The notes: generated by a model from the sequence alone, not told the origin. A stretch of 64,000 nt of DNA from an uncultured Clostridia bacterium (GCA_934167685.1 CAKPLQ010000001.1:2624-66623); one strand, 5' to 3'; positions 6,531 to 36,054 are shown, numbered from the stretch's first letter. Translations and numbers: made by a program.

Positions 6531-7037
6531 ATGAAAAAATTCGACAAGAAACAACAAATAAAGATAATAAAAATAATATTAATTATAATATGGATGGGAG
6601 TAGTATTTGCATTTTCAAATCAAGGTGGAACAAAATCGAGTGGTACAAGCTCAAAGGTGACAAGAGTAATTGTAAATATTGTAACAAAAGACAATGAAGA
6701 ACCCAATAAACAAACAATGGAACAAATAGAAAAAGTTGTAAGAAAAGTCGCACATTATACTATTTATACAATAGGTGGATTCTTAATAATGAACTATACA
6801 TATTCAATGGAGAAAACCAAAAAGCAAAAGGTATTAGGAAGTTTACTTTTTGGCGTATTTTATGCGTCTACAGATGAATTACATCAATATTTTGTGCCTG
6901 GCAGAAGTGCAAGACTTTTTGATGTAGGAATTGATACACTAGGAGTTCTTACAGGAATTTTAGCATATTTAGTAATTAGAAAGTTAATAAAAAATATTGA
7001 TATACAAGTTAGGATTCATGGAAAAGAGGAAAAATGA
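6531..7037 (+). CDS. VanZ-like family membrane protein
   Basis: 168 aa, polytopic. The C-terminal segment ...TDELHQYFVPGRSARLFDVGIDTLGVLTG... matches the VanZ-like (PF04892) signature D-E-xHQ...PGR. Confidence 0.55.
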   Translation: MKKFDKKQQIKIIKIILIIIWMGVVFAFSNQGGTKSSGTSSKVTRVIVNIVTKDNEEPNKQTMEQIEKVVRKVAHYTIYTIGGFLIMNYTYSMEKTKKQKVLGSLLFGVFYASTDELHQYFVPGRSARLFDVGIDTLGVLTGILAYLVIRKLIKNIDIQVRIHGKEEK

Positions 7038-8977
7038 AAAGAGTTAATGATTTATTGAGAAAAAAATTCTCTAAGATAATAATTTTTATGTTACTAGATG
7101 TTAGTGTTATGCTAGTTGCCACATTTTTAGCGGTTGCTTTAAGATTTGACTTTATAAATATACCATTACAATATTTAGAAGTAGCCTTTAAGTATGTTGC
7201 TTTAGATATTGCTATTATGGTAACATCTTTTTCATTGTATAATTTGTATACATCAGTATGGAGATATGCTTCAATTACAGAACTAATTAATATTGTAATG
7301 GCTTGTGGTACAACAGAAATAATTTGTTTTGCATACAAAAAGTTTTTAGGAATATCAATGCCAAGAAGTTATTATTTAATTAGAGTATTACTATTAGTGC
7401 TTCTAATTACTTCAGTTAGATTTTCATTTAGAATATTAAGAACTCTTATTATAAAGATTGAAAATAAAAAGAAAAATAATAATATAATGATAATAGGTGC
7501 TGGAGAAGCTGCCAGATTATTAATAGATGAAATATCAAGAAATAAAAAATATTTTGATTCGAAAATAGTTTGTATAATAGATGATAACAAAGAAAAAATT
7601 GGAACATATTTAAGAGGAATACAAATTGTTGGAACAAGAAAGAAAATTAAGCAAGCATCTGAAACATATCAAGTTAATCAAATTATAATTGCAATTCCAT
7701 CAGCTCCAAAAGAGGAAATTTCTAAAATAGTTACAGAGTGCCAAAAGACCACTTGTGAATTAAAGATATTACCTTCAATTTATTTAACGATGAATGAAAA
7801 AGAAAATAATATTGTTAATAATATAAGACCAATATCATATGAAGACTTTTTAGGAAGAAGCCAAATCGTTGTTGATATTAATGAAATTTCTGATAATATT
7901 ACAGATAAAGTTATAATGGTAACTGGAGGAGGAGGTTCAATAGGTTCTGAACTTTGCAGACAGATTGCAAAATGTAATCCAAAGCAATTAATTATATTTG
8001 ATATTTACGAAAACAATGCATATGATATTCAAATGGAACTTTTAAGGGACTATCCAAAACTTGATTTACATGTTATAATTGGTTCAGTTAGAGATTATGA
8101 CAGATTAGAAAGAGTATTTAGGGAATATAAACCAAATCAAGTTTTCCATGCTGCAGCACATAAACATGTGCCATTAATGGAAATGAGTCCTAATGAGGCA
8201 ATAAAAAATAATTGTTTAGGAACGTTAAATTGTGCTAAATTAGCAGATAAATATAAAGTTGCAAAATTTGTACTAATTTCAACAGATAAAGCAGTAAGAC
8301 CAACGAATATAATGGGAGCATCAAAAAGAATTTGTGAAATGATAATTCAGAGCTATGATAAAAAAAGCAAAAATACATCTTATGTAGCAGTAAGATTTGG
8401 AAATGTGTTAGGTTCAAATGGTTCTGTAATTCCATTATTTTTAAAGCAGATAGAAAATGGAGGGCCTGTGACTGTTACACATAAAGATATAACTAGATTT
8501 TTTATGACAATACCAGAAGCAGTAAGTTTAGTGCTACAAGCAAGCGTTTATGCCGAAGGTGGAGAAATATTTGTTTTAGATATGGGACAACCTGTTAAAA
8601 TATATGATTTAGCAAAACAGATTATAAGATATAAAGGTTTTGAACCAAATGTAGATATAAAAATAGAAATTACAGGCTTAAGACCTGGAGAAAAATTATA
8701 TGAAGAAATTTTAATGGATGAGGAAGGTTTAAAAGAAACTCCTAATAAATTAATCCATATTGGCAAACCAATTGAAATAGATAAAAATTTCTTTAGAGAT
8801 TTGGATTTATTAATAAAAGCTTCATATAATAATGAGCCAAATATAAAAAAGAAAGTGGCTAGAATTGTAAAGACGTATAGAATAGATGAAAATATAAATT
8901 CTGAGAATAAAAATTATGAAACAAAAGTAATAAAGAATAATTTTGAAATAACAGAATTAAGAGAAGTAAATGCTTAA
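7034..8977 (+). CDS. membrane-anchored UDP-GlcNAc 4,6-dehydratase (CapD/PglF/WbpM family)
   Basis: 647 aa. Four N-terminal transmembrane helices are followed by a Rossmann motif VTGGGGSIGSEL, a YxxxK catalytic motif and a CapD C-terminal domain. A 4-nt overlap with the upstream gene suggests operon coupling. Confidence 0.8.
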   Translation: MKRVNDLLRKKFSKIIIFMLLDVSVMLVATFLAVALRFDFINIPLQYLEVAFKYVALDIAIMVTSFSLYNLYTSVWRYASITELINIVMACGTTEIICFAYKKFLGISMPRSYYLIRVLLLVLLITSVRFSFRILRTLIIKIENKKKNNNIMIIGAGEAARLLIDEISRNKKYFDSKIVCIIDDNKEKIGTYLRGIQIVGTRKKIKQASETYQVNQIIIAIPSAPKEEISKIVTECQKTTCELKILPSIYLTMNEKENNIVNNIRPISYEDFLGRSQIVVDINEISDNITDKVIMVTGGGGSIGSELCRQIAKCNPKQLIIFDIYENNAYDIQMELLRDYPKLDLHVIIGSVRDYDRLERVFREYKPNQVFHAAAHKHVPLMEMSPNEAIKNNCLGTLNCAKLADKYKVAKFVLISTDKAVRPTNIMGASKRICEMIIQSYDKKSKNTSYVAVRFGNVLGSNGSVIPLFLKQIENGGPVTVTHKDITRFFMTIPEAVSLVLQASVYAEGGEIFVLDMGQPVKIYDLAKQIIRYKGFEPNVDIKIEITGLRPGEKLYEEILMDEEGLKETPNKLIHIGKPIEIDKNFFRDLDLLIKASYNNEPNIKKKVARIVKTYRIDENINSENKNYETKVIKNNFEITELREVNA

Positions 8978-9005
8978 AATTAGATAGAAAAGAGAATGAC
9001 AAGAG

Positions 9006-10238
9006 ATGAAAAATATAAAACCTTTTGAAAATAAAGTATGGTTAAGTTCACCAACAATGCATGGAGATGAAATAAAATGGGTTGAAGAGGCATATAGAAC
9101 AAATTGGATGAGCACAGTTGGTGAAAACATTAATGAAGTTGAAAAGATGACATGTAAAAAAGTTGGGTGCAAATATGCTGTTGCATTATCTTCTGGAACG
9201 GCATCATTGCATTTAGCAATGAAATTAGCAGGAATCAAAAAAGATGAAAAGGTATTTTGTAGTGATATGACATTTAGTGCAACAGTAAATCCTATTATAT
9301 ATGAGGGTGGAATACCTGTATTTATTGATACAGAATATGATTCATGGAATATGGACCCAGTAGCCTTAGAAAAGGCATTTGAACTTTACCCAGAGGTTAG
9401 AGTGATAGTTGTTGTTCATTTATATGGAACACCTGCAAAAATGGATGAAATAATAAAAATTGCTAAAAAACATAATGCTATTGTTATAGAAGATTCAGCT
9501 GAAAGCTTGGGGGCTACATATAAAGGAAAACAAACTGGAGCATTTGGAAAATATAATTGTATTTCATTTAATGGAAATAAGATTATAACAGGTTCAAGTG
9601 GAGGAATGTTGTTAACAGACGACTTAAATGCTGCTAATAAGGCAAGAAAATGGTCAACACAAGCAAGAGAAAATGCACCATGGTATCAGCATGAAGAAAT
9701 AGGTTATAATTACAGAATGAGCAATGTTATAGCAGGTGTAGTTAGAGGGCAATATCCACATTTAGAAGAGCATATAGCCCAAAAGAAGGCCATATATGAA
9801 AGATATAAAGAAGGATTAAAAGGATTACCATTAAAAATGAATCCGATTCCAGATAATTGTGAGCCTAATTATTGGTTGTCTTGCATGATAATAGATAAAG
9901 ACGCTATGTGCAAGCAAGTAAGAGGCGAACAAGAAGCTCTTTATATAAGTCAAAAAGGAAAATCTTGCCCAACAGAAATACTAGAAAAAATAGCAAGTAT
10001 AAATGCAGAAGGAAGACCAATTTGGAAACCAATGCACATGCAACCTATTTTTAGAATGAATCCATTTGTTACTGGACATGGTAATGGCAGAGCAAATACA
10101 AATGCATATATTGCAGGAGAAAGTCAAGATATTGGTATGGATATATTTAATAGAGGATTGTGTTTACCTTCTGATAATAAGATGACACCAGAACAACAAG
10201 ATAAAATTATAGATGTTATAAGAGGATGTTTTGAATGA
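9006..10238 (+). CDS. DegT/DnrJ/EryC1/StrS-family PLP-dependent sugar 4-aminotransferase (PglE/Cap/WbpE-like)
   Basis: 410 aa. Family motifs are present, including ...VALSSGTASLHLAL... and the lysine-containing ...SFNGNKIITGSSGG... Confidence 0.85.
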   Translation: MKNIKPFENKVWLSSPTMHGDEIKWVEEAYRTNWMSTVGENINEVEKMTCKKVGCKYAVALSSGTASLHLAMKLAGIKKDEKVFCSDMTFSATVNPIIYEGGIPVFIDTEYDSWNMDPVALEKAFELYPEVRVIVVVHLYGTPAKMDEIIKIAKKHNAIVIEDSAESLGATYKGKQTGAFGKYNCISFNGNKIITGSSGGMLLTDDLNAANKARKWSTQARENAPWYQHEEIGYNYRMSNVIAGVVRGQYPHLEEHIAQKKAIYERYKEGLKGLPLKMNPIPDNCEPNYWLSCMIIDKDAMCKQVRGEQEALYISQKGKSCPTEILEKIASINAEGRPIWKPMHMQPIFRMNPFVTGHGNGRANTNAYIAGESQDIGMDIFNRGLCLPSDNKMTPEQQDKIIDVIRGCFE

Positions 10239-10912
10239 TGGAACATAAAAAAGGAATATATGAAAATTACATAAAGAGAATATTGGACATTATTTTAAGC
10301 CTAGTTGCTTTGGCATGTTTATCTCCTATTTTATTGATTGTTGCAATTTTGGTAAGAGTAAGATTAGGTAGTCCAGTTCTTTTTAAACAGAAAAGACCTG
10401 GAAAGGATGAAAAGATTTTTACTTTATATAAGTTTAGAACTATGACGGATGAAAGAGATAAATCAGGTAATTTATTACCTGATTCTCAAAGATTGACTAA
10501 GTTTGGTAAGTTCTTGAGAAGTACTAGTTTGGACGAGTTGCCAGAATTGATTAATATTATTAAAGGCGATATGAGTATTGTGGGGCCAAGGCCACAACTT
10601 GTGAGAGATATGCTGTTTATGACTGATGAACAAAGAAAAAGACATTCTGTTAGACAAGGCTTAACAGGGCTTGCTCAAGTTAATGGAAGAAATAATATAA
10701 CTTGGGAAGATAAGCTTAATTATGATTTAGAGTACATACAAAATATAACATTTATTGGAGATTTAAAGATAATTCTAAAAACTGTTTTGAAAGTTTTTAG
10801 AAAAGATGATATAAATACTGATGGAATGGATACAGCAGAGGATTTGTGTGATTATCTGTTAAGAACTAAACAAATATCAGAAGAAGAATATAAAGAAAAG
10901 TTGAAAATATAA
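10235..10912 (+). CDS. undecaprenyl-phosphate sugar phosphotransferase, small PglC/WecP-like bacterial sugar transferase
   Basis: 225 aa. It has a single N-terminal transmembrane helix (RILDIILSLVALACLSPILLIVAIL) and the motifs KFRTM and DELPQLINIIKGDMSIVGPRP. Confidence 0.85.
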   Translation: MMEHKKGIYENYIKRILDIILSLVALACLSPILLIVAILVRVRLGSPVLFKQKRPGKDEKIFTLYKFRTMTDERDKSGNLLPDSQRLTKFGKFLRSTSLDELPELINIIKGDMSIVGPRPQLVRDMLFMTDEQRKRHSVRQGLTGLAQVNGRNNITWEDKLNYDLEYIQNITFIGDLKIILKTVLKVFRKDDINTDGMDTAEDLCDYLLRTKQISEEEYKEKLKI

Positions 10913-10925
10913 TTAGGGAGATAGA

Positions 10926-11717
10926 ATGGAAGAAGAGTTAGTATCGATTATAATGCCTTCATATAATACAGGAAAATTTATAGAAAAAACAATTAATTCT
11001 GTAATTAATCAAACATATAACAATTGGGAACTGATAATTGTTGATGATTGCTCAAATGATAATACAGACGAGATTGTAAAAAGTATTAATGATAGCAGAA
11101 TTGTTTACTTAAAAAATGAAAGAAATAGCGGAGCGGCTGTTAGTAGAAATAAAGCATTAAAAGAGGCTAAAGGAAGATGGATTGCATTTTTGGATAGTGA
11201 TGACTTATGGAAAAAAGATAAATTGCAAAAACAAATTGATTTTATGAAGGAAAACAATTATTGTTTTAGCTATACTAATTATATTGAAATTGATGAAAAT
11301 GATAATTCAAATGGAAAAATAATAACAGGGCCTAAAAGAATAACTAAAACAGCGATGTTTAATTATTGCTGGCCTGGTTGTTTGACTGTAATGTATGATG
11401 CAAAAAAAATTGGGTTAATCCAAATAGAAGATATAAAAAAGAATAATGATTATGCTATGTGGTTAAAGGTTTGCAAGAAAGCAGATTGCTATTTGCTAAA
11501 TGAAGAATTAGCTATGTATAGAAGAAGAAGCGGAAGCATAAGCAATCATAGTTATATAACATTAATTAAATGGCATTATAAATTATATAGAGAAGCTGAA
11601 CATCAGAATGTGATTTATAGTTTGTTTAATACTTGTAGGAATATGGTGTTTGGAATACATAAGAAGAAAAAATATTGTAATTTGTTTGATGTGGAGAAAA
11701 AAAGTGGAAAGAGATAA
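10926..11717 (+). CDS. glycosyltransferase family 2
   Basis: The N-terminus VSIIMPSYNTGKFIEKTINSVINQTY...IIVDDCSND and a DxD motif at DSDD are classic GT-A/GT2 features. Confidence 0.8.
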   Translation: MEEELVSIIMPSYNTGKFIEKTINSVINQTYNNWELIIVDDCSNDNTDEIVKSINDSRIVYLKNERNSGAAVSRNKALKEAKGRWIAFLDSDDLWKKDKLQKQIDFMKENNYCFSYTNYIEIDENDNSNGKIITGPKRITKTAMFNYCWPGCLTVMYDAKKIGLIQIEDIKKNNDYAMWLKVCKKADCYLLNEELAMYRRRSGSISNHSYITLIKWHYKLYREAEHQNVIYSLFNTCRNMVFGIHKKKKYCNLFDVEKKSGKR

Positions 11718-12597
11718 TATTTTATACAAAATTAGAAGAAAATGTCAAGTAATAGCACATAAAATTTTTAGTAATGAATTTATGTCCAAGCTGTATTTTA
11801 AAATTGTGTTGAGGGAAAAATTAGATTTAAAAAATCCAAAAACTTTCAATGAGAAATTGCAATGGCTAAAATTATATTATTATCCAAATAATGATTTAGT
11901 AATAAAGTGTGCTGATAAATATAGAGTTAGAGAATATATTAAAGAAAAAGGATATTATGATACATTAGTTCCATTAATTGGATGTTGGGAAAATACAAAA
12001 GAGATAAAATGGAATGATTTACCAAACCAATTTGTGTTAAAATGTAATCATGGCTGTGCATATAATATTATTTGTTATGATAAAGAAAAATTTGATAAAG
12101 AGAGTTCAATAAAATTGTTAGACAAGTGGATGAAGGAAGATTTTGGAGCATTTAATATTGAATTACATTATTCAAAAATAAAACAACATAGAATAATATG
12201 TGAAGAATTTTTGGGTGAAAATCTTGTGGATTACAAATTCTTTTGTTTTAATGGGCAAGTAAAATATATGTATGTTGCAAGCGATTCTCTTCATGATAGA
12301 CAATGTAAAATGGGATTTTTTAATTTAGATGGTTCAAAAATGGAGATACAAAGAGATGATTATGACAACATTGAAGAAATAACATTTCCAGAATTTTATA
12401 ATGAAATGCTGGATATGGCTCAAAATATCTGTAAAGATTTTATTTTTGTAAGAGTTGATTTTTTTGTAACTGAATATAAGTATTATTTCGCAGAATTGAC
12501 TTTTACACCAAGCGCTTGTATGATGCCATTTAATCCAAAGAATGTAGATTTGGAATGGGGAAAATTATTAAATATAAGTGATTTGACTAAAAAATAA
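11689..12597 (+). CDS. TupA-like ATP-grasp protein (PF14305 teichuronopeptide-type), paralog 1
   Basis: Carries the family-typical NPKTFNEKLQWLKLYY motif and an ATP-grasp-like C-terminal half. It is a paralog of 14263-15120. Start set at the first in-frame ATG (MWRKK) after the GT2 stop; the ORF track begins further upstream. Confidence 0.6.
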   Translation: MWRKKVERDNILYKIRRKCQVIAHKIFSNEFMSKLYFKIVLREKLDLKNPKTFNEKLQWLKLYYYPNNDLVIKCADKYRVREYIKEKGYYDTLVPLIGCWENTKEIKWNDLPNQFVLKCNHGCAYNIICYDKEKFDKESSIKLLDKWMKEDFGAFNIELHYSKIKQHRIICEEFLGENLVDYKFFCFNGQVKYMYVASDSLHDRQCKMGFFNLDGSKMEIQRDDYDNIEEITFPEFYNEMLDMAQNICKDFIFVRVDFFVTEYKYYFAELTFTPSACMMPFNPKNVDLEWGKLLNISDLTKK

Positions 12598-12609
12598 GGA
12601 GGAAGAGGT

Positions 12610-13134
12610 ATGGCAAAAATGAATATTAGTCCAAATAACTTTTGGATTAAGAAACTTATGGGCATTATACAACATTATGATTCAGATAAATATTGGAAAA
12701 GAAGAAAAATTGTTGTCAATCCTGCTGATAAAACAAATAAGCTAATCAAATTATATTACCTTTTCTATATAAAGAAATGTGATGCATACAACAATGCTTC
12801 AATGGGAACAGACTTAAATCAAGGAGCAATATTTGAAACAAGACCAGAATTACCACATGGGTTAAATGGAATTATTGTACATTTAAAAGCTCATATAGGA
12901 GCAAATGCAGTAATATGGCAACAAGTTACTATTGGTAGCTCTGGAGGTGGAACTCCATGGATTGGTGATAATTGTAAAATTGGTGCAGGAGCGAAAATTT
13001 TAGGCAAGATTAAAATAGGAAATAATGTTACAATTGGTGCAAACACAGTTGTAACCAAAGATATTCCGGATAATTGTACTGTGGTTGGTCAACAAATGAG
13101 AATACTTGAAAATAAAAATATTGATAAGAAATAA
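12610..13134 (+). CDS. hexapeptide-repeat (LbH) O-acetyltransferase (WcaB/CysE-like)
   Basis: 174 aa. Hexapeptide repeats run through GANAVIWQQVTIGSSGGGTPWIGDNCKIGAGAKILGKIKIGNNVTIGANTVV. RBS GGAGGAAGAGG. Confidence 0.8.
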   Translation: MAKMNISPNNFWIKKLMGIIQHYDSDKYWKRRKIVVNPADKTNKLIKLYYLFYIKKCDAYNNASMGTDLNQGAIFETRPELPHGLNGIIVHLKAHIGANAVIWQQVTIGSSGGGTPWIGDNCKIGAGAKILGKIKIGNNVTIGANTVVTKDIPDNCTVVGQQMRILENKNIDKK

Positions 13135-13171
13135 TAAATTAAGCATATATGTGAATTTAATGGAGGAGAAT

Positions 13172-14266
13172 ATGAATATTCTATATTTATCAAATTTGAC
13201 CGGAAATTTATTTGCAGGTCCTAATAATAGTGTTCCTGCACAAATAAGTGCACAATCTAAAATAGATAATGTTTTTTGGTATAATATAAATAATATAAAA
13301 AGAGATGAGTGGAAAGAATTAAATTGCTTTAATTTAAATGATTATCCCACAGGGAGGTTAAAAGATTTACCAGAACCATTTAATAAACCAGATATAATTG
13401 TTATTGAAGAATTTTACTGCTTTCCATTTTGCAAACTAATTTATGATGCAATTGAATGTAAAATTCCATATATTATTATTCCAAGAAGTGAATTAACAGA
13501 AAATGCCCAGAAAAAAAAGTATATTAAGAAATTTTTTGGAAATATAGTATATTTTAAAAAAATGGCTAAAAGAGCAGCTGCAATTCAGTTTTTATCTCTT
13601 CAGGAAAAGTTAGATACTAGTGAAAAATGGAACAAAAAATATATGATTATTCCAAATGGTGTTGAGATTTCTAACAATAAGAAAGAAGTATTTTCAAAAA
13701 ATGAAATTAAGGCTACATATATAGGACGATATGAGTTATATCAGAAAGGATTAGATATTTTGATAGATGCTATTGCAAATACTCAAGATATATTAAGACA
13801 AAATAATTTTATATTGAATATGTATGGAGTTGATCAAGAGGGGACAATAAAGATTATAGAAAAAAAAATAATAGAATATGGTATAAGTGATTTGGTAAAG
13901 ATTAATAGTGCTGTTTTTGGAGAGGAAAAGAAGAAGATTATCTTGGAATCTGATGTTTTTGTTTTAACATCAAGATTTGAAGGAATGCCAATGGGACTTA
14001 TTGAGGCATTATCATATGGTATTCCTTGCTTAGTGACAAAAGGTACTAATATGAGTGAAGATATTAATAGCTATAATGCAGGTTGGATTTCAGATAATAC
14101 AGTAGAAAACTTAAAAGATGCTATAAAAAAAATGTTAAAAGATAAAGAAAAATTAAAAATAATAGGCGATAATGCAAAAAAATTATCTTTAAAATATTCT
14201 TGGAAACAGATAGCAGAAAAAACACATAATGAATTCGAAAAAATTATTCTGGAGGAATTGAAATGA
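13172..14266 (+). CDS. glycosyltransferase family 4 (GT-B)
   Basis: The C-terminal EX7E-type motif ...SRFEGMPMGLIEALSYGIPCLVT... is present. Start chosen at MNILYL, 6 nt after GGAGGAG. Confidence 0.8.
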   Translation: MNILYLSNLTGNLFAGPNNSVPAQISAQSKIDNVFWYNINNIKRDEWKELNCFNLNDYPTGRLKDLPEPFNKPDIIVIEEFYCFPFCKLIYDAIECKIPYIIIPRSELTENAQKKKYIKKFFGNIVYFKKMAKRAAAIQFLSLQEKLDTSEKWNKKYMIIPNGVEISNNKKEVFSKNEIKATYIGRYELYQKGLDILIDAIANTQDILRQNNFILNMYGVDQEGTIKIIEKKIIEYGISDLVKINSAVFGEEKKKIILESDVFVLTSRFEGMPMGLIEALSYGIPCLVTKGTNMSEDINSYNAGWISDNTVENLKDAIKKMLKDKEKLKIIGDNAKKLSLKYSWKQIAEKTHNEFEKIILEELK

Positions 14267-15120: not shown

Positions 15121-15135
15121 AAGTATGGAGGATAT

Positions 15136-17633: not shown

Positions 17634-17646
17634 CAAGGAGGACTAC

Positions 17647-19158: not shown

Positions 19159-19191
19159 TTTTATTAATTAATTATAGAAAGAGAGAATATA

Positions 19192-20220: not shown

Positions 20221-20244
20221 TGTTTTAAATAGGAGGTGTCTAAC

Positions 20245-21411: not shown

Positions 21412-21479
21412 TGCATAAATATAAAAAAATAACAAAATATTTTAAGTCAAAATTTATAAAAAAAAATTTCAAAAAACTA

Positions 21480-21508: not shown

Positions 21509-21549
21509 CAAAATGTAAAAAATAAAACAAAAGAAAGGAAGAAAATAAA

Positions 21550-22696: not shown

Positions 22697-22725
22697 ATAT
22701 TGCATAATAAGAAAGGAAAATAAAA

Positions 22726-23574: not shown

Positions 23575-23576
23575 TA

Positions 23577-24287: not shown

Positions 24288-24290
24288 AGG

Positions 24291-26056: not shown

Positions 26057-26097
26057 GAATTGGGATAACATATGCAAAATATTAATTTTATAATATA

Positions 26098-26195
26098 TTA
26101 AGGGTTTTAAGTATATAAATTCGTTATGAAAAAATTTGTATACTTTGAACCCTTTTTTGGCAATAGAAAAATCAAAAAACCTATTGCCAAAAAAC
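26098..26195 (+). terminator. two tandem hairpins downstream of the cpsB-like gene (terminator and/or operator)
   Basis: AAGGGTTTTAAGTATA...TATACTTTGAACCCTT is followed by a T-run. It is followed by a perfect 10-bp inverted repeat TTGGCAATAG-14nt-CTATTGCCAA flanked by T/A runs. Confidence 0.45.
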
Positions 26196-26290
26196 TAATA
26201 AAATGATATATTAAGTGGAGAAGAAAAAATTTCGACAAAAAGTACAAATAAACAACAAAATGTTTACTTCAATTATGGGGGGAGAAAAAA

Positions 26291-28844: not shown

Positions 28845-28853
28845 GGAATATAA

Positions 28854-29810
28854 ATGATTAGCAAATTAATGATAGGAAGGCTTGGAAACCAAATGTTTCA
28901 ATATGCAACAATGAGAGCTTTTCAAGAAGAAAACAATATTGTTGAAAAATTTAATATGGAGTTTTCGAATGTAAGAAAGAATGGAAGTCCAGAAGAAGGT
29001 TTTATAAATCAATTAGATTGTTTTAAATTGAATGATGAAAAATATGTAATAGATGAAAAGATACATATATCAATATGGCAAAAAATATTATTGGGAATAT
29101 ATTTTATTACATATAAAATAATAAAAGTATTTTCTAAAAAAGAAAGTTACGAAAATAATAAGCAAAAATATGAAGCAAAGATACAGAAATTTTATAATAA
29201 AAATGGATTATATTTATATAATTTTGGTTATTATGATTTTAAAAATTCTAAAAGTGAAGATAAATTGTTTATAGGCTATTATGAAGCTTCTAAATATTTT
29301 GACAAAATAAAACAACAAATTCAAGAGGAGTTTACACCAAAGTATCCTAAAATAGAAAAAAATCTTAAATTATATGATATAATCGAAAATACAGAATCTG
29401 TATGTATATCTATAAGAAGAGGGGATTTTTTAAGTAACGCAAATAAAGGAGTTTGCTATGTGTGTACCCCAGAGTATTTTAATAAGGCAATTGAGAAAAT
29501 AAAAGAAGAAGTAAAGGAACCTAGATTTATAGTTTTTTCAGATGATGTAGATTGGGTTAGAAATAATATGAACTTTCCAGATGGAACAGAATATGAAGAA
29601 GGAAATGACCCTATTTGGGAAAAGTTAAGATTAATGTATAGTTGTAAACACTTTGTAATATCAAATAGTTCATTTAGTTGGTGGGCTCAGTATTTGTCAA
29701 GAAACGAAAAGAAAGTAGTTGTTGCACCCAATAAGTGGAGAAATTATGGGTATGATTCAAAAGATATATATATGAATAATTGGATATTGATTAATACAGA
29801 TAAAGAATAA
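28854..29810 (+). CDS. alpha-1,2-fucosyltransferase-like glycosyltransferase (GT11 family)
   Basis: The N-terminal IGRLGNQMFQYA matches GT11 motif I. The C-terminal HFVISNSSFSWWAQYL matches GT11 motif IV. Confidence 0.65.
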   Translation: MISKLMIGRLGNQMFQYATMRAFQEENNIVEKFNMEFSNVRKNGSPEEGFINQLDCFKLNDEKYVIDEKIHISIWQKILLGIYFITYKIIKVFSKKESYENNKQKYEAKIQKFYNKNGLYLYNFGYYDFKNSKSEDKLFIGYYEASKYFDKIKQQIQEEFTPKYPKIEKNLKLYDIIENTESVCISIRRGDFLSNANKGVCYVCTPEYFNKAIEKIKEEVKEPRFIVFSDDVDWVRNNMNFPDGTEYEEGNDPIWEKLRLMYSCKHFVISNSSFSWWAQYLSRNEKKVVVAPNKWRNYGYDSKDIYMNNWILINTDKE

Positions 29811-29814
29811 ACAT

Positions 29815-30933
29815 ATGGAGGAAGAAATGAAGGTATTATTTTGTATAGATAGTTTAACTAAAGGTGGAGCTGAGAGAGTAATCAGTAATTTAAGTAATTA
29901 TCTAGTAAAAAAAGAAGAAAATGAAATTAATGTATTAACTATTTTAAATACTAAAGTTCAATATGAGTTTGATGAGAGAGTAAAGATTTCTAGTTTGGAA
30001 GATGAAAAAATAGAAAAGTTAAATAAAGTTTCAAAATTTATTCAAAGAATAAAAAAAATGAGACAATATATAAAAGAGAACAATCCTGATGTTATTTTGG
30101 CATTTTTACCATATACATCTTTTATAGTGATGTTGGCTAATAGAAAATTAAAAAAGCCTGTGATTATTTCTGTAAGAAATGACCCAAAAGAAGAATACAA
30201 TTGTAAAAAATATAAAATTTTAAAAGATAAATTCTATCCTAAAGCTGATGGATTTGTATTCCAAACTCAAGAAGCAAAAGAGTTTTTTCAACAGGAAATA
30301 CAAGATAAATCAGTTGTAATAGCTAACCCTATTAATCCAGAGTTTATCGAACCACCATTTGATGGTGAACGTGAAAAAAACATTGTATCAGTTGGAAGAT
30401 TGTATGAACAGAAAAATCAAAAATTATTAATAGATGCTTTTACACAAATTTCTGATGAGTATAAAGACTATAATTTAATAATATATGGAGAAGGATATTT
30501 AAGACAAGAATTAGAAAACCATGTGAAAGAATTAAACATGACTGAAAGAATATCATTACCAGGAAGAGTTGATAATGTAAAAGAAAAAATATATAAGTCA
30601 AGTTTATTTGTATTATCATCAGATTTTGAGGGAATGCCAAATGCATTAATGGAAGCAATGGCTTTAGGTTTGCCAGTTATTTCAACAGATTGCCCATGTG
30701 GAGGACCTAAATTTTTGATAGATAATAACAAAAATGGAATGTTGGTAGAAGTTGGTAATGTAAAAGAATTAAGTCAGGCAATAAAAAAGATGTTGGACAA
30801 TCCGGAAGAGGCAAAAATGATGGGGAATGAAGCAAATAAAATTTCAGAAAGATTAGCACCAGAAAAAATTAATAAATTATGGGAAGATTATATAATAGAA
30901 ATAGCAAAGAATAGGAGAAAAAATGGAAAATAG
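29815..30933 (+). CDS. glycosyltransferase family 4 (GT-B)
   Basis: Has ...SDFEGMPNALMEAMALGLPVISTD... (E-x7-E). The N-terminus LFCIDSLTKGGAERV is typical of GT4. Confidence 0.8.
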   Translation: MEEEMKVLFCIDSLTKGGAERVISNLSNYLVKKEENEINVLTILNTKVQYEFDERVKISSLEDEKIEKLNKVSKFIQRIKKMRQYIKENNPDVILAFLPYTSFIVMLANRKLKKPVIISVRNDPKEEYNCKKYKILKDKFYPKADGFVFQTQEAKEFFQQEIQDKSVVIANPINPEFIEPPFDGEREKNIVSVGRLYEQKNQKLLIDAFTQISDEYKDYNLIIYGEGYLRQELENHVKELNMTERISLPGRVDNVKEKIYKSSLFVLSSDFEGMPNALMEAMALGLPVISTDCPCGGPKFLIDNNKNGMLVEVGNVKELSQAIKKMLDNPEEAKMMGNEANKISERLAPEKINKLWEDYIIEIAKNRRKNGK

Positions 30934-32158
30934 TAAAAATGAAAAAATATTAGACAGTATTAATTTAATTTTAATTTTTCTATTATTTATTTCATACTTA
31001 GGATATAGTTATAATAAAAAGATATATTATGCAATGACTCTAATTACTGCAGTATTTGCAATTGCAAAGTTGATATTTATAGATAAGTTTAAAGTGAAAA
31101 TAAGTAGACATTTTGTGTGGTATTTTTTGTTTTTTATTTTTTCAAGTTTATCTATAATGTGGACCATAGATACAAACTATACTTTTGATGGAATAAAAAA
31201 TGTTTTGTTGATATTAGTAAATATATTTGCTATATTAGAGTATACACAAGACAAAAAAAGAACAATACAAGTGTTAGATATTTATATAATAGCTTGTTTA
31301 TACATGTGTATTAGATTGATATTCTTTGAAACAGCACAACCAAGAGTAACAAATGATTATGGACAAATTTGTGGATTATATTTTAACACAATAGCATTTA
31401 CTTTGGCTATTGGAGTTTTTGTATGTTTATATATGATATTAGAAAAAAAAGAGATAGGTAGAAAAAAATTATTATACTTAATACCAATTGTTATATTTTA
31501 TTACATAATATATGTAACAGGCTCAAGAAAAGGATTATTATTTCCAATAATTGCTAGCCCTGCATTAATTATATTATATATAAGAAAAAACAGAAAAATG
31601 TTAATTAAATCTTTAATTGGCATAGGAATAGCAATAGTAATGATAACAATATTTATATTTACTGATAAGACATTAACAAAAAGAATAATTAATCTTGGTA
31701 AATCTATTGTTGGAATACAAGTGGAAGATAAAAGTGTGGAAGAAAGAAGTTTTTATAGAAAAACTGCTATGCAATTATTTGGAGAAAGTCCAATTATAGG
31801 AAAAGGATTAAATTCCTTTACTGCATATATGGAACAAATAAATTATAAACATGTTGCATACTCACACTGTAATTTTACTGAATTATTATCAAGTCTTGGA
31901 ATAATTGGTTTTGCAATTTATTATATGCAATATATTTATATAATTGTAAAATCTGGAAAAAAGATAAAAGAAAATGATTTGGAAAATATTTTTGCATTAG
32001 TATATGTAATATTAATTAGTATTTTTGAATATGGAATAGTTTCTTATTATGATTTTTCATATCAGATTATACTAGCATTAGTTTTTTCACTTATAGATAA
32101 GTCAGAAAAAATAGATTGTAAAGCTAAAGTTTTAGAAAAATTTTCAAAAAATAAATAA
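30923..32158 (+). CDS. Wzy / O-antigen-ligase-family polytopic membrane protein (repeat-unit polymerase of module B)
   Basis: 411 aa with about 10 transmembrane helices and a larger periplasmic loop near the C-terminal third. It lies between the GTs and wzx. Confidence 0.55.
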   Translation: MENSKNEKILDSINLILIFLLFISYLGYSYNKKIYYAMTLITAVFAIAKLIFIDKFKVKISRHFVWYFLFFIFSSLSIMWTIDTNYTFDGIKNVLLILVNIFAILEYTQDKKRTIQVLDIYIIACLYMCIRLIFFETAQPRVTNDYGQICGLYFNTIAFTLAIGVFVCLYMILEKKEIGRKKLLYLIPIVIFYYIIYVTGSRKGLLFPIIASPALIILYIRKNRKMLIKSLIGIGIAIVMITIFIFTDKTLTKRIINLGKSIVGIQVEDKSVEERSFYRKTAMQLFGESPIIGKGLNSFTAYMEQINYKHVAYSHCNFTELLSSLGIIGFAIYYMQYIYIIVKSGKKIKENDLENIFALVYVILISIFEYGIVSYYDFSYQIILALVFSLIDKSEKIDCKAKVLEKFSKNK

Positions 32159-32194
32159 TGAGTGAAAAGTCACTCGCAAATGAAAGGTGAAAAA

Positions 32195-33710
32195 ATGAGA
32201 AGCAAAAAAGCAATAAAAAATATAATTGCATCATTATTGCAACAGGCAATAACAATAATATGTGGGTTAATATTACCTAGAGCCATTATAAAGACATATG
32301 GCTCTAGTGTAAATGGTTTAGTTTCATCTATAACACAATTTTTAGCATATATAGTGTTATTAGAAGCGGGAATTGGACCAGTAATAAAATCAGTTTTATA
32401 TAAACCAATAGCTAATAATGATAAGGAACAAATAGAAAAAATTTTAAAATCTGCACAAAGATTTTTTAATGTAATTTCATATATTTTTATAGCATATCTA
32501 TGTGTATTGTGTTTTGTGTATCCAAGATTAGTTAATAATGAATTTTCAACAGGTTATACGGTATCATTATTATTGATAATCTCAATAAGCACATTTGCTG
32601 AATACTTTTTTGGGATGGTGTATAATTTGTATTTACAGGCAGACCAAAAAACATATGTTACAACTAATATACAAAGTGCTACAACAATATTAAATACGGT
32701 TTTATGTATTGTTTTGATAAAACTTGGAATGAGTATACAAATTGTAAAACTTGTTAGTGCATTTGTTTTTGTGCTTAGACCAATTCTTCAAAATTTATAT
32801 GTAAGAAAGAAATATAATATAAATTTAAGAAATGTAAAAGAAAAATATGAATTAAAACAAAAATGGGATGGTTTAGTTCAGCATATTGCATCTGTAATTC
32901 ATGATAATACAGATGTTACACTATTAACAATATTAGGGGAGACTAAAGAAATTTCGGTATATTCAGTATATTTGTTAGTATTAAAAGGTATAAAAAGTTT
33001 AGCACAATCTCTTGTAAATGGTGTTATTGCATCATTTCGGAAATATGTATGCTAAAAATGAACATGAAAGTTTAAATAGAAGTTTTAATATATATGAATT
33101 ATTTTATTTTACAATGATAACTATTATATTTTCTTGTACGATGTGTTTGATAATACCATTTGTAAAAGTATATACAATAGGAATTGTTGATGTGAACTAT
33201 GTTAGACCATTGTTTGCTTGCTTAATTGTAATTGCAGAATATATGTGGGCAATAAGACAACCATATAGTGGTATAACATTAGCCGTTGGGCATTTTAAGG
33301 AAACAAGAAAAGGGGCATGGGTTGAAACATTAACGAATATAGTAGTTTCTTCTGTATTAGTGGTGAAACTAGGACTTGTTGGAGTTGCTATAGGTACTCT
33401 AGTGGCTATGACAATTAGAACTATTGAATTTATGTATCATTCTGCAAAATATATCTTGAAAAGAAAGCAAATAAATGGCTTTTTACATTTAGGAATTGCT
33501 TCTATAGAAATAACTACAATATATTTTATTGTTAATTGTATAATAAAAAAAGTAGTATTTACAAGTTATATTGTATGGATGAAATATGCAATAATTTCAG
33601 CAATAATTTCATCAATAATAACAATAGGAATTAATTGTGCTGTGTATAGAAATGAGACAAAAGGTATAATTGATATAATAAAAAAGAATTTAAAAAGAAA
33701 AGAGGTTTAA
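32195..33710 (+). pseudogene. wzx flippase gene interrupted by a +1/-1 frameshift near 33018-33055 (split into 297-aa and 230-aa ORFs)
   Basis: ORF 1 (...SLVNGVIASFRKYVC*) and ORF 2 (HHFGNMYAKNEHESLNRSFNIYELFYF...) are collinear with the intact Wzx at 17647 (...LGREYALNNREKLLKMYDFIEFMFF...). The two frames overlap by 38 nt. The combined length of about 510 aa equals that of the intact paralog. Confidence 0.6.
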
Positions 33711-33711
33711 C

Positions 33712-34686
33712 ATGAAAACGTATTTTATTACAGGTGGAGCAGGATTTATAGGTTCAAGCTTAACAAAAAAATTGTTAGAAAATGGTGACAAAGTAGTAAC
33801 AATCGATAATTTTTGTGACTTTTATAACCCAAAAATAAAAGAGAAAAATGTTAAAGAATTTGAAGAAAATGAAAATTATAAAATGTATAAAGCCGATATT
33901 AGAGATAGACAAATTATAAGACAAATATTTGATGAAAATAAAATAGATATTGTAATGCATTTGGCTGCTATGGCAGGTGTAAGACCATCAATAGAAAATC
34001 CAATACTATATCAAGAAGTAAATTGCCTAGGAACACAGAATATTTTAGAAGAAATGAAAGAACATAATGTTAAGAATTTGGTAATGGCATCATCAAGTAG
34101 TGTGTATGGAAATTGCAAAGAGGTTCCATTTAGAGAAGATATGATTGTAGATTTTGCAATAAGTCCTTATGCGGCAACCAAAAAAGCAAATGAAGTAATG
34201 ACACATGTATATCATAAGTTATTCAATATGAATGTAATGATGTTGAGATTTTTTACTGTTTATGGTCCTAAACAGAGACCTGATTTAGCAATAAACAAAT
34301 TTACACGTTTAATGCTAAATGATGAGGAAATTCCAATGTTTGGAGATGGAACAACATCAAGAGATTATACTTATATAGATGATATAGTTGATGGAATAAG
34401 AAAATCATGTGAGTATTGTATGAATAATGAAAATACATATGAAATATTAAATATTGGAAATTCTTCACCAGTGACATTGAAAGAAATGATTATGACTATA
34501 GGAAAGGCATTAGGAAAGCAACCTAAAATAAAACAATTGCCAATGCAACCAGGAGATGTTGATAGAACATTTGCAGATATTAGCAAAGCTAAAAAATTAA
34601 TAGGATATGAGCCAAGGGTATCTTTTGAACATGGAATAACAAATTTTGTAGAATGGTATAAAAAGAATTTTGAAATGTATATATAA
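33712..34686 (+). CDS. NAD-dependent epimerase/dehydratase, UDP-glucuronate 4-epimerase-like (second copy)
   Basis: Has GGAGFIGSSL, YAATKKANE and FFTVYGPKQRPDLA. About 40% identical over its full length to the 19192 paralog. Confidence 0.7.
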   Translation: MKTYFITGGAGFIGSSLTKKLLENGDKVVTIDNFCDFYNPKIKEKNVKEFEENENYKMYKADIRDRQIIRQIFDENKIDIVMHLAAMAGVRPSIENPILYQEVNCLGTQNILEEMKEHNVKNLVMASSSSVYGNCKEVPFREDMIVDFAISPYAATKKANEVMTHVYHKLFNMNVMMLRFFTVYGPKQRPDLAINKFTRLMLNDEEIPMFGDGTTSRDYTYIDDIVDGIRKSCEYCMNNENTYEILNIGNSSPVTLKEMIMTIGKALGKQPKIKQLPMQPGDVDRTFADISKAKKLIGYEPRVSFEHGITNFVEWYKKNFEMYI

Positions 34687-34708
34687 ATGAGAGGAGACAT
34701 AGTTTACG

Positions 34709-36031
34709 ATGAAAATAACGGTAGCTGGAACAGGATATGTTGGATTAGTGGCTGGGGTATGTTTTGCTGAGAAAGGCCATAACGTATTATGTGTAGATGT
34801 AGATGAAAATAAAGTAAAATTAATGAAACAGGGAAAATCTCCAATATATGAAGAGGGATTAGAAGAACTACTTGCTAAAAATTATAAAGAAGGAAGATTA
34901 GATTTTACAACAGATTATAAAATGGCATATAAGGATGCTGACGCAATATTTATAGGAGTTGGAACACCTGAACAACCAGATGGTTCTGCAAATCTAAGTT
35001 ATGTAGCAACAGTGTCAAGACAGATTGCTGAAAGTGTCGAAAAAGATTGTATTGTTGTTGTAAAATCAACAGTTCCAATAGGAACTAATGATAAGGTAGA
35101 ACAATTTATAGAAGATTCTTTGGTACATGATGTAAAAATTGAGGTAGCAAGTAATCCAGAATTTTTAGCTCAAGGACGAGCTGTAAAAGACACATTAGAA
35201 GCTAAAAGAATTGTAATAGGTACAGAATCTGAAAATGCTGAAAAAGTTTTAAGAGAAATTTATAAACCATTTAATTTACCAATAGTGTCTGTAAATAGAA
35301 GAAGTGCAGAAATGATTAAATATGCATCAAATGATTTTCTAGCATTAAAAATTTCGTATATGAATGATATTGCAAATTTATGTGAATTAGTTGGAGCAGA
35401 TATAGAAGATGTTGCTAGAGGAATGAGTTATGACCTAAGAATAGGAGCAAATTTCCTAAATGCTGGTATTGGATATGGAGGAAGCTGTTTTCCTAAAGAT
35501 ACAAAAGCTTTGAAATATTTGGCAAATCAACATGGATATGAACTAAAAACAGTTGAAGCTGCTGTTGATGTTAATACTGCACAAAAAACAAAATTATTCA
35601 GAAAAGCGTCAAAAAGAATGATAACATTCAAGGGACTAAAAATTGCAATATTAGGATTGACATTTAAACCAGGTACAGATGATTTACGAGAGGCACCTTC
35701 ATTAGATAATGTAAAATTGCTATTAGAAAGTGGAGCTGATAATATATATGCATATGACCCCGTAGGAATTGAGAATTTTAAAAAGAAATATCCAGATGAA
35801 TTAAAATATGTTGAAACACCAGAAGAAGCTCTTGAAAATGCTAATATATGTTTTATATTTACTGAATGGAATGAAATAAAATCTATAAAACCAGAAACAT
35901 ATAAGAAATTGATGAAAACACCATTAGTGTATGACGGAAGAAATATATATCAAGGTAAAGATATGCAAAAAGAAGGAATAGAATATTATTCTATTGGAAG
36001 ACAAGATGTAAATAGCAAAAAATTAGATTAA
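34709..36031 (+). CDS. UDP-glucose 6-dehydrogenase, long (~440-aa, TuaD/YwqF-like) form
   Basis: Has MKITVAGTGYVGLV and the catalytic cysteine region GYGGSCFPKDT, plus a C-terminal UDP-binding domain. RBS GAGGAG. Confidence 0.8.
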   Translation: MKITVAGTGYVGLVAGVCFAEKGHNVLCVDVDENKVKLMKQGKSPIYEEGLEELLAKNYKEGRLDFTTDYKMAYKDADAIFIGVGTPEQPDGSANLSYVATVSRQIAESVEKDCIVVVKSTVPIGTNDKVEQFIEDSLVHDVKIEVASNPEFLAQGRAVKDTLEAKRIVIGTESENAEKVLREIYKPFNLPIVSVNRRSAEMIKYASNDFLALKISYMNDIANLCELVGADIEDVARGMSYDLRIGANFLNAGIGYGGSCFPKDTKALKYLANQHGYELKTVEAAVDVNTAQKTKLFRKASKRMITFKGLKIAILGLTFKPGTDDLREAPSLDNVKLLLESGADNIYAYDPVGIENFKKKYPDELKYVETPEEALENANICFIFTEWNEIKSIKPETYKKLMKTPLVYDGRNIYQGKDMQKEGIEYYSIGRQDVNSKKLD

Positions 36032-36054
36032 CCCAAAAGAAAAGAGGTATAGAT

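Follow-up and report, generated by a model that had tools for sequence, protein, structure and literature searches.

The question raised by the locus described here is whether two sets of polysaccharide genes lying side by side on one strand are two self-contained loci or two halves of a single system. The locus is found at positions 6531–37113 of a stretch of 64,000 nucleotides (nt), hereafter called the window, from an uncultured Clostridia bacterium (GCA_934167685.1, CAKPLQ010000001.1:2624–66623). A preliminary description, made from the sequence alone, took the genes for two complete Wzx/Wzy-dependent sets in tandem, each with a priming transferase of its own and each ending in an epimerase–Ugd pair. 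Every gene that it named is present in its place on the + strand, and the arrangement as a whole is probably that of a bipartite surface-polysaccharide locus, variable between serotypes, in an uncultured Clostridium of the human gut, with two modules of the Wzx/Wzy type, A (7034–21411) and B (26291–37113), built around one shared control operon (21550–26056). Going beyond known descriptions, the sole CpsBCD set lies inside a sortase operon between the two modules, in an arrangement conserved in at least five lineages, and the second module is inserted cleanly between cpsB and the terminator of cpsB.

The window has a G+C content of about 28%, and its proteins find exact matches in human-gut metagenome assemblies (from Hadza/Nepal and other studies), as well as in the NCBI metagenome-assembled genome GCA_964313985.1. 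The boundaries of the locus are observed directly. On its left lie housekeeping and sporulation genes (tmRNA, SpoVT, MutS2, and HPF), and on its right the genes of a small acid-soluble spore protein (SASP) and of a HAD hydrolase, followed by a conserved SAF/ATPase operon. The junctions are clean, and no mobile-element genes were identified among the annotated open reading frames (ORFs) of the locus.

The central operon and the variation of the two modules

The region between modules A and B comprises the following features (lengths of proteins are given in amino acids, aa):

21471–21508, + strand: promoter-like site of the central operon (A-tract, TTGCAC, 17 nt, TGtTATAAT with an extended −10)
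21550–22071, + strand: small secreted sortase substrate with an LAYTG sorting signal, a transmembrane segment, and a basic tail (as read from the sequence), kept with the cassette in L005–L007 and L034
22061–22696, + strand: class-D-like sortase (PF04203, 100 bits; NF058671 SrtD, 127.9 bits against a cut-off of 140)
22726–23574, + strand: 282-aa membrane protein of no known family, its stop 3 nt before wzz, 46–64% conserved in relatives
23577–24287, + strand: CpsC/Wzz-type chain-length co-polymerase, only copy (PF02706, 71.9 bits; TIGR01006, 170 bits)
24291–25325, + strand: CpsD-type bacterial tyrosine kinase (BY-kinase), only copy (TIGR01007, 197 bits against a cut-off of 108), with YYY at residues 225–227 and a long charged tail
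25325–26056, + strand: CpsB, a PHP-type phosphotyrosine phosphatase, only copy (PF19567, 212.9 bits)
26100–26158, + strand: intrinsic terminator after cpsB (21-bp interrupted stem and T6; folding energy −20.8 kcal/mol, z −4.88)

The Wzz (23577), BY-kinase (24291), and CpsB (25325) genes were named correctly in the preliminary description, which nevertheless skipped the preceding segment, 21550–23574, with the sortase substrate, the class-D-like sortase, and the membrane protein that adjoins Wzz and matches no Pfam or NCBIfam family. It also counted the Wzz/BY-kinase/phosphatase trio as module B's own. This assignment does not hold, as the operon is conserved and serves the upstream module in relatives; judging by sequence comparison, the trio is part of an operon that accompanies whichever module is present. 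The relatives in question, L005, L006, L007, and L034, have core proteins 46–95% identical to those of the window and share one order, in which a single polysaccharide module is followed by the sortase substrate, the sortase, the membrane protein, Wzz, kinase, CpsB, SASP, and HAD genes. L005, L006, and L007 share the promoter-like site ahead of the sortase-substrate gene. In these three lineages, the hairpin that is found at 37118–37144 in the window lies within a few bases of the cpsB stop; what they lack is thus exactly the segment 26057–37117. In L034, the SASP gene begins about 50 nt after cpsB, with no module B between them. By these alignments, module B is an accessory block placed between the cpsB stop and the ancestral terminator (37118–37144).

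The order of the six genes coding for the sortase substrate, sortase, 282-aa protein, Wzz, BY-kinase, and CpsB is kept in at least five lineages (21550–26056 in the window, 178–4638 in L005, 3421–7756 in L006, 8722–13252 in L007, and 14007–18626 in L034). A sortase and its substrate in one operon with a capsule tyrosine-kinase module have not, to our knowledge, been described. In a further, more distant contig (L038, 13103–14013), a module-A-like cluster (90% identical) is followed directly by Wzz (68% identical) without the sortase cassette, and the cassette is therefore not universal.

Module B begins downstream of the cpsB terminator and comprises:

26175–26212, + strand: promoter-like site of module B (A-tract, TTGCCA, 17 nt, TGaTATATT), of the same design as the central-operon site
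26291–26995, + strand: WbaP-like primer, catalytic domain only (PF02397, 217.4 bits; TIGR03022, 292 bits), conserved in all B alleles
26995–27837, + strand: GT2 glycosyltransferase (Pfam match), allele-specific
27837–28844, + strand: GT2 glycosyltransferase (Pfam match), allele-specific
28854–29810, + strand: GT11 glycosyltransferase (Pfam match), allele-specific
29827–30933, + strand: GT4 glycosyltransferase (Pfam match), allele-specific
30923–32158, + strand: WzyB polymerase of the Wzy_C family (PF04932, 60.1 bits against a cut-off of 31.7)
32195–33710, + strand: wzxB, a broken MOP-type flippase gene (ORFs 32195–33055 and 33018–33710)
33712–34686, + strand: EpiB, a UDP-glucuronic acid 4-epimerase-like short-chain dehydrogenase/reductase (SDR) (PDB 5u4q, E = 5e-78; 6zl6, E = 2e-58; SSSSVYG, YxxxK, and FFTVYGPxxRPD motifs aligned)
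34709–36031, + strand: UgdB, a 440-aa TuaD-like UDP-glucose 6-dehydrogenase (TIGR03026, 461 bits against a cut-off of 189.8; NF047673 TuaD, 527 bits against a cut-off of 700)
36055–37113, + strand: LCP-family ligase, the only copy in the window and the conserved right end of module B (PF03816, 125.9 bits; TIGR00350, 97.9 bits against a cut-off of 62.3)
37118–37144, no strand assigned: GC-rich hairpin (folding energy −19.6 kcal/mol, z −5.7), directly after the cpsB stop in relatives

Contigs of the same species whose CpsB or 282-aa protein is an exact match agree with the window at about 99% identity over 20245–27010, from ugdA through the module B primer. Divergence is then complete from 27010 to about 36018, after which the LCP genes are again 82–88% identical. 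The slot 27010–36018 holds at least five gene sets. The first, that of the window, reads GT2-GT2-GT11-GT4-Wzy-wzx-epimerase-Ugd, the second DUF4422-GT2-Stealth-Gtf3-Wzy-Wzx-Glf, and the third DUF4422-LicD-GT2-IspD-epimerase-Wzy-Wzx-Glf, while the fourth is of a LicD/Glyphos_transf type and the fifth of a pyruvyl/acyltransferase type. The statement that each module ends in an epimerase–Ugd pair is accordingly true of the window, but for module B it applies to this allele only, since other B alleles end in Glf. In turn, the middle of module A (about 11670–20245) exists in at least three versions, exemplified by L009 and L024, all of which keep TupA-like ligases, a flippase family that matches no Pfam entry, an epimerase, and Ugd. 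A comparison of strains had been suggested in the preliminary description; it finds that modules A and B are swapped independently within the species, that A was lost in one strain, and that B is absent in the four related lineages. The strain in question, L012, lacks 7685–22894 (15.2 kb, module A together with the sortase genes) and keeps the VanZ-like gene, Wzz-kinase-CpsB, and a module B. The junction of this deletion lies on a 9-bp microhomology, AATCAAATT (1367–1375 in L012, 7676–7684 and 22886–22894 in the window).

Cassettes also move between the two positions. The upstream module of L034 has a primer 72% identical to that of module B, and its wzx-epimerase-Ugd segment shows 80% DNA identity to 32195–36031 over 3.9 kb, about the background divergence of the flanks; the ends of the L034 upstream module are therefore homologous to those of module B.

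The window contains a single Wzz/kinase/phosphatase set and a single LCP gene for both modules, all genes lie on one strand, and no terminator separates ugdA from the central operon. These properties would also suit an arrangement in which both modules build one composite glycan, for instance a backbone with a side polymer, as in the lactococcal rhamnan–polysaccharide pellicle or the enterococcal Epa, with the whole 30 kb as a single functional unit. We consider such a product quite improbable, since each module has its own primer, polymerase, and flippase, since module B comes after a strong terminator and has a promoter of its own, and since A and B alleles assort independently, with A deletable and B absent in four relatives. 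The favored arrangement is one of two polymers, for both of which the single CpsC/CpsD/CpsB set would control chain length and the single LCP ligase would carry out attachment, although this sharing is something that we infer. At least three versions of A and five of B give one species at least 3 × 5 combinations of two surface glycans, which is relevant to phage and immune recognition of a gut commensal.

The preliminary description placed hairpins and promoters at 21480 and near 26100 as separators of the two modules. The hairpin at 26100–26154 exists, and none of 200 shuffled sequences folds as well as the cpsB terminator to which it belongs; it lies, however, inside the module B of that description, between cpsB and the primer. 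At 21480 there is a promoter-like site and no hairpin, none being found between ugdA and the sortase-substrate gene (21411–21550).

The motif AAAAAMCTATTGC has exactly three + strand copies in the window, at 21471–21483, 26175–26187, and 37532–37544, ahead of the sortase operon, of module B, and of the HAD gene, respectively. Each copy forms the A-tract and −35 element of a promoter-like site with an extended −10, which suggests common regulation. Two homopolymers in regulatory positions vary among strains, namely A9/A10 at 21457, upstream of the sortase-operon promoter, and T6/T7 in the tail of the cpsB terminator (26153–26158).

Gene content and predicted products of the two modules

Module A and the gene at its left border comprise:

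6531–7037, + strand: VanZ-like membrane protein (PF04892, 83 bits), conserved as the left border, first gene downstream of a promoter-like site at 6493–6521
7034–8977, + strand: PglF/CapD-like membrane-anchored UDP-GlcNAc 4,6-dehydratase (PF02719, 410.8 bits; PseB/FnlA-like, below equivalog cut-offs), in the conserved 5′ block
9006–10238, + strand: PglE-like sugar 4-aminotransferase (PF01041, 270.8 bits; best solved relatives 1o61 and 4ztc, E = 6e-78)
10235–10912, + strand: small PglC-type phosphoglycosyl transferase, the module A primer (PF02397, 218.7 bits against a cut-off of 27)
10926–11717, + strand: GT2 glycosyltransferase, TuaG-like (PF00535, 141.6 bits; NF047683 TuaG, 247.8 bits, below the cut-off of 400)
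11704–12597, + strand: TupA-like ATP-grasp ligase 1 (PF14305, 130 bits), its start set after the gene called in L001
12610–13134, + strand: hexapeptide acetyltransferase of the CysE/EpsC/WcaB type (PF00132; NF041874 EpsC, 91 bits; NeuD/PglB match partial only)
13172–14266, + strand: GT4 glycosyltransferase A1 (PF00534, 94 bits)
14263–15120, + strand: TupA-like ATP-grasp ligase 2 (PF14305, 230 bits)
15136–16233, + strand: GT4 glycosyltransferase A2 (GT4_A2), a fused 365-aa gene with a T6 run at 15621–15626 (PF00534, PF13439)
16230–17633, + strand: candidate Wzy-like repeat-unit polymerase (TIGR04370, E = 3.6e-5, 22.9 bits against a cut-off of 40, aligned over its full length)
17647–19158, + strand: WzxA, predicted MOP-superfamily flippase (fold match)
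19192–20220, + strand: EpiA, a UDP-glucuronic acid 4-epimerase-like SDR (PF01370; PDB 5u4q, E = 1e-115; 6zl6, E = 4e-40)
20245–21411, + strand: UgdA, a 388-aa UDP-glucose 6-dehydrogenase (TIGR03026, 330 bits, above the cut-off of 189.8), the conserved 3′ end of module A

The preliminary list for this module is borne out for Bac_transf at 10235, GT2 at 10926, GT4 at 13172 and 15136, the Wzy-like gene at 16230, the Wzx-like gene at 17647, and the epimerase at 19192, as well as for Ugd at 20245, expected to be of a 390-aa type. Its start requires correction, because the gene at 6531, given as a transferase, is VanZ-like, and the list omits the PglF-like (7034), PglE-like (9006), ATP-grasp (11704 and 14263), and acetyltransferase (12610) genes. 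On the side of module B, the named genes likewise stand, including Bac_transf at 26291, two GT2, GT11, GT4, Wzy_C at 30923, the epimerase at 33712, the 440-aa TuaD-like Ugd at 34709, and LCP at 36055. Each module thus described possesses a separate priming transferase and separate glycosyltransferases, together with a polymerase candidate and a MOP-type flippase gene of its own, in agreement with two separate assembly lines linked to undecaprenyl phosphate.

The sugars of both products are read from family membership and are given here as predictions. In module A, UDP-GlcNAc would be converted by the PglF- and PglE-like enzymes to a bacillosamine-type 2-acetamido-4-amino-2,4,6-trideoxyhexose, which the PglC-like enzyme would load onto undecaprenyl phosphate. 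The solved relatives of the aminotransferase, labeled only "aminotransferase" in the table of matches, are structures that we take to be C. jejuni PglE. The best solved relatives of the primer are those of the N,N′-diacetylbacillosamine-1-phosphate transferase PglC (8e37 and 8g1n, E = 6e-67, residues 6–203). The TuaG-like GT2 and the two GT4 enzymes would extend the unit with sugars that include glucuronic acid (GlcA) or galacturonic acid (GalA) supplied by UgdA and EpiA. Amide bond formation at the carboxylates of the uronic acids is the probable role of the two TupA-like ATP-grasp ligases, by analogy with the TupA-like domain of C. jejuni Cj1438C, which amidates the C6 carboxylate of GlcA in the capsule (PMC11800379); alternatively, they might acylate the 4-amino group. 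The acetyltransferase at 12610 looks more like an O-acetyltransferase than like PglD in its family matches, and it would O-acetylate the unit before WzxA flips it and the Wzy-like protein polymerizes it. The predicted polymer of module A is of a bacillosamine type, with uronic acids and amide decorations; with a free 4-amino group, it could bear positive as well as negative charges.

PglF-, PglE-, and PglC-like genes at the head of module A, and a sortase substrate encoded immediately downstream of it, are what might be expected if the module glycosylated a protein, for example the adjacent sortase-anchored one, with a bacillosamine-primed glycan, as do the Pgl systems of Campylobacter and Neisseria. 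This is very unlikely. Module A contains no oligosaccharyltransferase of the PglB or PglL type, a Wzy-like polymerase and the Wzz/BY-kinase set are present, and in relatives the sortase cassette adjoins modules with a WbaP-like primer instead. Synthesis of a surface polysaccharide, which is the reading followed here, would proceed in module B from a hexose-1-phosphate transferred by the WbaP-like enzyme; four transferases would extend the unit, with GlcA or GalA from UgdB and EpiB, and after the action of Wzy and Wzx the LCP ligase, which has a LytR_cpsA_psr domain and an N-terminal membrane anchor, would attach the polymer to peptidoglycan.

Since each module has its own Ugd and its own UDP-GlcA-4-epimerase-like gene, uronic acids are expected in both products, as the preliminary description had predicted. 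Both Ugd proteins are closest to models specific for UDP-glucose, whereas models of UDP-ManNAc and UDP-GlcNAc dehydrogenases score far lower; the best equivalog of UgdA, PRK15057, is matched with 568 bits against a cut-off of 757. The best structural relative of both epimerases is PDB 5u4q, deposited as "dTDP-glucose 4,6-dehydratase", on which a literature search found no functional data. The structure 6zl6, labeled only "Epimerase domain-containing protein" in the table of matches, is presumably the UDP-GlcA 4-epimerase of B. cereus (BcUGAepi). Neither EpiA nor EpiB reaches an NCBIfam equivalog. By sequence, both are putative UDP-GlcA 4-epimerases, whose preferred substrate may be GlcA, N-acetylglucosaminuronic acid (GlcNAcA), or a hexose. 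EpiA and EpiB are 44% identical, close to the approximately 40% given earlier for a diverged second epimerase, and UgdA and UgdB are 34.5% identical. A recent tandem duplication as the origin of the two pairs is ruled out by these protein identities and by a shared DNA repeat of only 40 nt.

The flippases WzxA and WzxB belong to a family of proteins of about 500 aa with no Pfam or NCBIfam match, even at E = 1. An AlphaFold model of WzxA, calculated from an alignment of 36 homologs (predicted local distance difference test score, pLDDT, 83.5), has 14 helices and resembles MurJ, MATE, and WzxE (TM scores of 0.6–0.79, E = 1e-7 to 1e-6), and the predicted assignment as a flippase holds at the level of the fold. 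When the best 8,000 candidates were scored, this family had at least 2,889 database relatives at E ≤ 1e-10.

Several points weigh against the arrangement proposed here. The polymerase of module A is weakly assigned: TIGR04370 stays below its cut-off, and the best match of the 16230 protein in a Foldseek fold search is WaaL, with E = 0.1 and TM scores of 0.31–0.35; NCBI and JGI label its homologs as O-antigen polymerase or repeat unit polymerase. The usual donor of GT11 enzymes is GDP-fucose, and GDP-fucose genes were not found among the annotated genes, several ORFs being unannotated or without a Pfam match. Promoter-like hexamers are no more frequent in the window than in shuffled sequence, and the three transcription units, from 6.5 to 21.4 kb (with possible read-through beyond), from 21.5 to 26.1 kb, and from 26.2 to 37.1 kb, therefore remain predictions. 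Finally, a gain of module B here, as opposed to its loss in four relatives, is argued only tentatively, from counts.

Frame breaks at UUU-CGG sites

Of the two sets described earlier as complete, that of module A is intact, whereas that of module B contains a wzx interrupted by an insertion of 1 nt. The added base, a C at 33038 (TCA TTT C GGA), divides wzxB into ORFs of 286 and 230 aa, of which the first (32195–33055) aligns to the first half of WzxA and the second (33018–33710) to its second half, the two flippases being 32% identical. The 120 best homologs of wzxB are all single proteins of 499–513 aa that read ..DASFGDMY.. straight across the junction, and an intact wzx of L034, 77% identical, has TCA TTT GGA at the position of the break. 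The same extra C is present in L013, L015, L018, and L019, which makes five assemblies with the window. Carriers of this B allele are nearly identical, with 0–4 differences in about 10 kb, and one of them differs from the window at four other sites in 9.9 kb. Because the same base recurs in five assemblies, including one that differs elsewhere, a sequencing error is ruled out, and the lesion is real and inherited. No repaired allele was found in the JGI metagenomes.

As encoded, module B would stall after synthesis of the repeat unit, and synthesis of the second polymer is probably poor or abolished, barring a substitution by WzxA or slippage of ribosomes over the break. The three outcomes are thus a module B that is effectively off, a substitution by WzxA, and a +1 shift at UUU-CGG, with the first the most likely. 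Taken further, only module A may yield polymer here, and module B may be a recently disabled remnant with a flippase truncated after about 283 residues, in its C-lobe. This possibility, which overlaps with the explanation given above and sharpens its last step, strikes us as close to evenly balanced. The break falls inside helix 259–295 of the 14-helix MOP model, no Shine–Dalgarno (SD)-like sequence or other ribosome-binding site precedes ATG 33018 of the second ORF, all of the 120 best homologs are unbroken at 499–513 aa, and the near-identity of the carriers (0–4 differences per 10 kb) means that the lesion can be young. The same lesion has nevertheless been found in at least four samples of different studies, so that it is not rapidly purged, and every other gene of module B is intact. 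In addition, a block at Wzx with an active primer and active glycosyltransferases is usually harmful, as undecaprenyl phosphate is trapped, and WzxA, at 32% identity, might substitute.

The sequence around the break allows the third outcome, production of full-length WzxB by +1 ribosomal frameshifting at UUU-CGG (33035–33040), which we regard as doubtful. The peptidyl-tRNA-Phe would slip from UUU to UUC while the A site awaits CGG, and reading would continue with GGA AAU AUG to give ..ASFGNMY... The site fits the pattern of a +1 shift, as UUC also codes for Phe, allowing the tRNA to re-pair, and as the A-site codon CGG, presumably decoded slowly, is used less than any other sense codon of the window (5 of 18,804 codons, 0.27 per 1000). 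The slip would restore exactly the sequence that is conserved in intact homologs. In E. coli, CGG in the A site favors +1 shifts, and TAT TTT CGG C (ygcH) was among the top FSscan candidates (PMC2790909); in glass-sponge mitochondria a +1 shift occurs at a rare CGG_A made by an insert 5′ of GGA (PMC5009743). The only other frame break seen in the locus, in GT4_A2 genes with a T7 run in 11 other contigs, is also at UUU-CGG, and the chance that a random insertion would create such a site is approximately 3e-4 to 1.6e-3. This argument from coincidence is, however, post hoc. No SD-like stimulator is present 3–4 nt upstream of the wzxB slip site, the break is absent from all homologs examined (the best 120), and one ordinary in-frame TTT-CGG occurs at 59418.

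The GT4_A2 break lends itself to a separate comparison. The T6 run is found only in the lineage of the window, while T7 is found in four same-species contigs and seven further metagenome contigs (L008, L010, L011, L014/L025, and L037–L043), whose module A is 90–99% identical to that of the window. In the T7 form, GAT TTT TTT CGG TGA gives two overlapping ORFs, and AAGGA lies 4 nt upstream of the site in 9 of the 11 contigs. Downstream of the break, three T7 allele groups differ by 0.14–0.17 at synonymous sites (pS) and by 0.018–0.025 at nonsynonymous sites (pN). At a pN/pS ratio of 0.11–0.15, the downstream part is therefore translated and under purifying selection. The T7 form may be a GT-B enzyme split at the interdomain linker, with an ATG of its own for the second part, an explanation that tells against recoding, or it may be a +1 recoding site.

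The preliminary description had also considered two phase-alternative capsules. Strains with other B alleles carry T7 in place of T6 in GT4_A2, which might suggest an A-off/B-on state. Reciprocal switching of the modules is nevertheless ruled out, as this module A frameshift is long established and selected and is not an off switch: T7 is common and old (11 contigs, 90–99% module identity), the sequence past the break is under purifying selection (pN/pS 0.11–0.15), and both modules are apparently intact in L009 and L024.

We can speculate, with considerable reserve, that the UUU-CGG dicodon is a +1 recoding site in glycan-assembly genes of this low-GC Clostridium lineage, conserved in GT4_A2 and re-arisen in wzxB. 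If this were true, the "broken" flippase would not be dead but synthesized in small, adjustable amounts, a junction peptide ..NGVIASFGNMYAK.. would be expected, and the locus would join the few bacterial cases in which a hungry codon drives +1 recoding.

Two of the five CGG codons of the window are supplied by a GC-rich 22-nt element, GGGACCGGTTCTTAACGGTGCA, which is present in nine copies, with none expected by chance. Copies are located at 3236–3292, 37631–37693, 38583–38604, 38671–38692, 56752–56773, and 60716–60772, and most of them form intergenic inverted pairs, like repetitive extragenic palindromic (REP) or terminator elements. The 3′ end of the HAD hydrolase ORF (38569–38754) runs into two of the copies, and since relatives align up to 38568 and resume at 38755, the last approximately 35 residues look like an element insertion that altered the C terminus.

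Surroundings and comparison with known systems

To the right of module B, the SASP gene (37277–37495, − strand) lies between the LCP and HAD genes, and the hairpin at 37118–37144 is common to SASP and LCP as a bidirectional terminator. Beyond the HAD gene follows a long + strand operon (38883–49417), which codes for a T2SSE-like ATPase, a protein with a SAF domain, and many others that match no Pfam entry, and which may encode a pilus-like or sporulation apparatus. At least the first five genes of this operon (38883–43793) are 46–95% identical to their counterparts in L005–L007, and the DNA match extends to about 45.2 kb, the comparison covering genes up to that point. An Rfam search of the window, including the intergenic gaps, gave only the tmRNA gene (772–1124, − strand) and one tRNA gene (51992–52063, + strand), with no riboswitch.

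Individual parts of the locus have counterparts in several well-described systems. As in the Pgl system of C. jejuni, PglF-, PglE-, and PglC-like proteins head module A, and the TupA-like ATP-grasp fold is shared with the uronic-acid amidoligase Cj1438C of the C. jejuni capsule (PMC11800379); in contrast to C. jejuni, there is no N-acetyltransferase of the PglD type and no PglB here, and the ATP-grasp proteins stand alone. The tua operon of B. subtilis shares with the locus a TuaD-like Ugd, a TuaG-like GT2, and a weakly TuaC-like GT4, along with the expectation of uronic acid in a wall-linked polymer. A TuaA-H set at equivalog level was not found, the TuaD-, TuaG-, and TuaC-like matches all being below NCBIfam cut-offs; the gene order is different, and the CpsBCD regulators point here to a capsule-type pathway. 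In the cps locus of S. pneumoniae (cpsABCD and a serotype-specific region), conserved regulatory genes and a primer likewise precede a hypervariable center exchanged by recombination, and the serotype 1 capsule contains a 4-amino-trideoxyhexose and galacturonic acid made by ugd and an epimerase. The pneumococcal locus differs in having one module, with LCP first and not last, and no sortase genes.

The bipartite layout itself is of an already known type, represented by C. perfringens and L. plantarum, and the presence of two acidic glycans side by side, called unusual in the preliminary description, has precedents in Cap A/Cap B of the former and cps1–3 of the latter. In L. plantarum WCFS1, cps1-cps2-cps3 are three tandem clusters of the Wzx/Wzy type that occupy a single variable region of 49 kb (Remus et al. 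2012, PMC3539956). Two of them have no kinase or primer genes of their own, some are without chain-length or kinase genes, which they presumably borrow, and the polymerase of one cluster is split by a single-nucleotide insertion (PMC3539956). The clusters of L. plantarum are separated by transposase genes, whereas none were identified here among the annotated ORFs.

In the gut Clostridia discussed here, the region should be annotated as a variable module followed by a sortase and CpsBCD operon and by an optional second variable module that ends in LCP, and not as two self-contained loci. The closest resemblance in the literature is to the CpCap locus of C. perfringens with its regions Cap A and Cap B (Lacey et al. 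2018, PMC5964661), a likeness at the level of the published description. Like the present locus, CpCap consists of two regions that vary among strains, and each of these has a primer, a Wzy-like polymerase, a Wzx-like flippase, and glycosyltransferases to itself; the second region opens with a primer of the cpsE/wchA type and closes with LCP (Wzg/CpsA); in some C. perfringens strains, region A includes a UDP-GlcNAc 4,6-dehydratase; most of them have a single cpsCD modulator set; and, as a further similarity, an adhesion locus lies directly downstream of CpCap (PMC5964661). In C. perfringens, however, Cap B carries phosphocholine genes, whereas the B allele of the window has an epimerase and Ugd, and cpsCDE are located at the 5′ end of Cap A, whereas here the Wzz/kinase/phosphatase genes stand between the modules, fused to the sortase operon.

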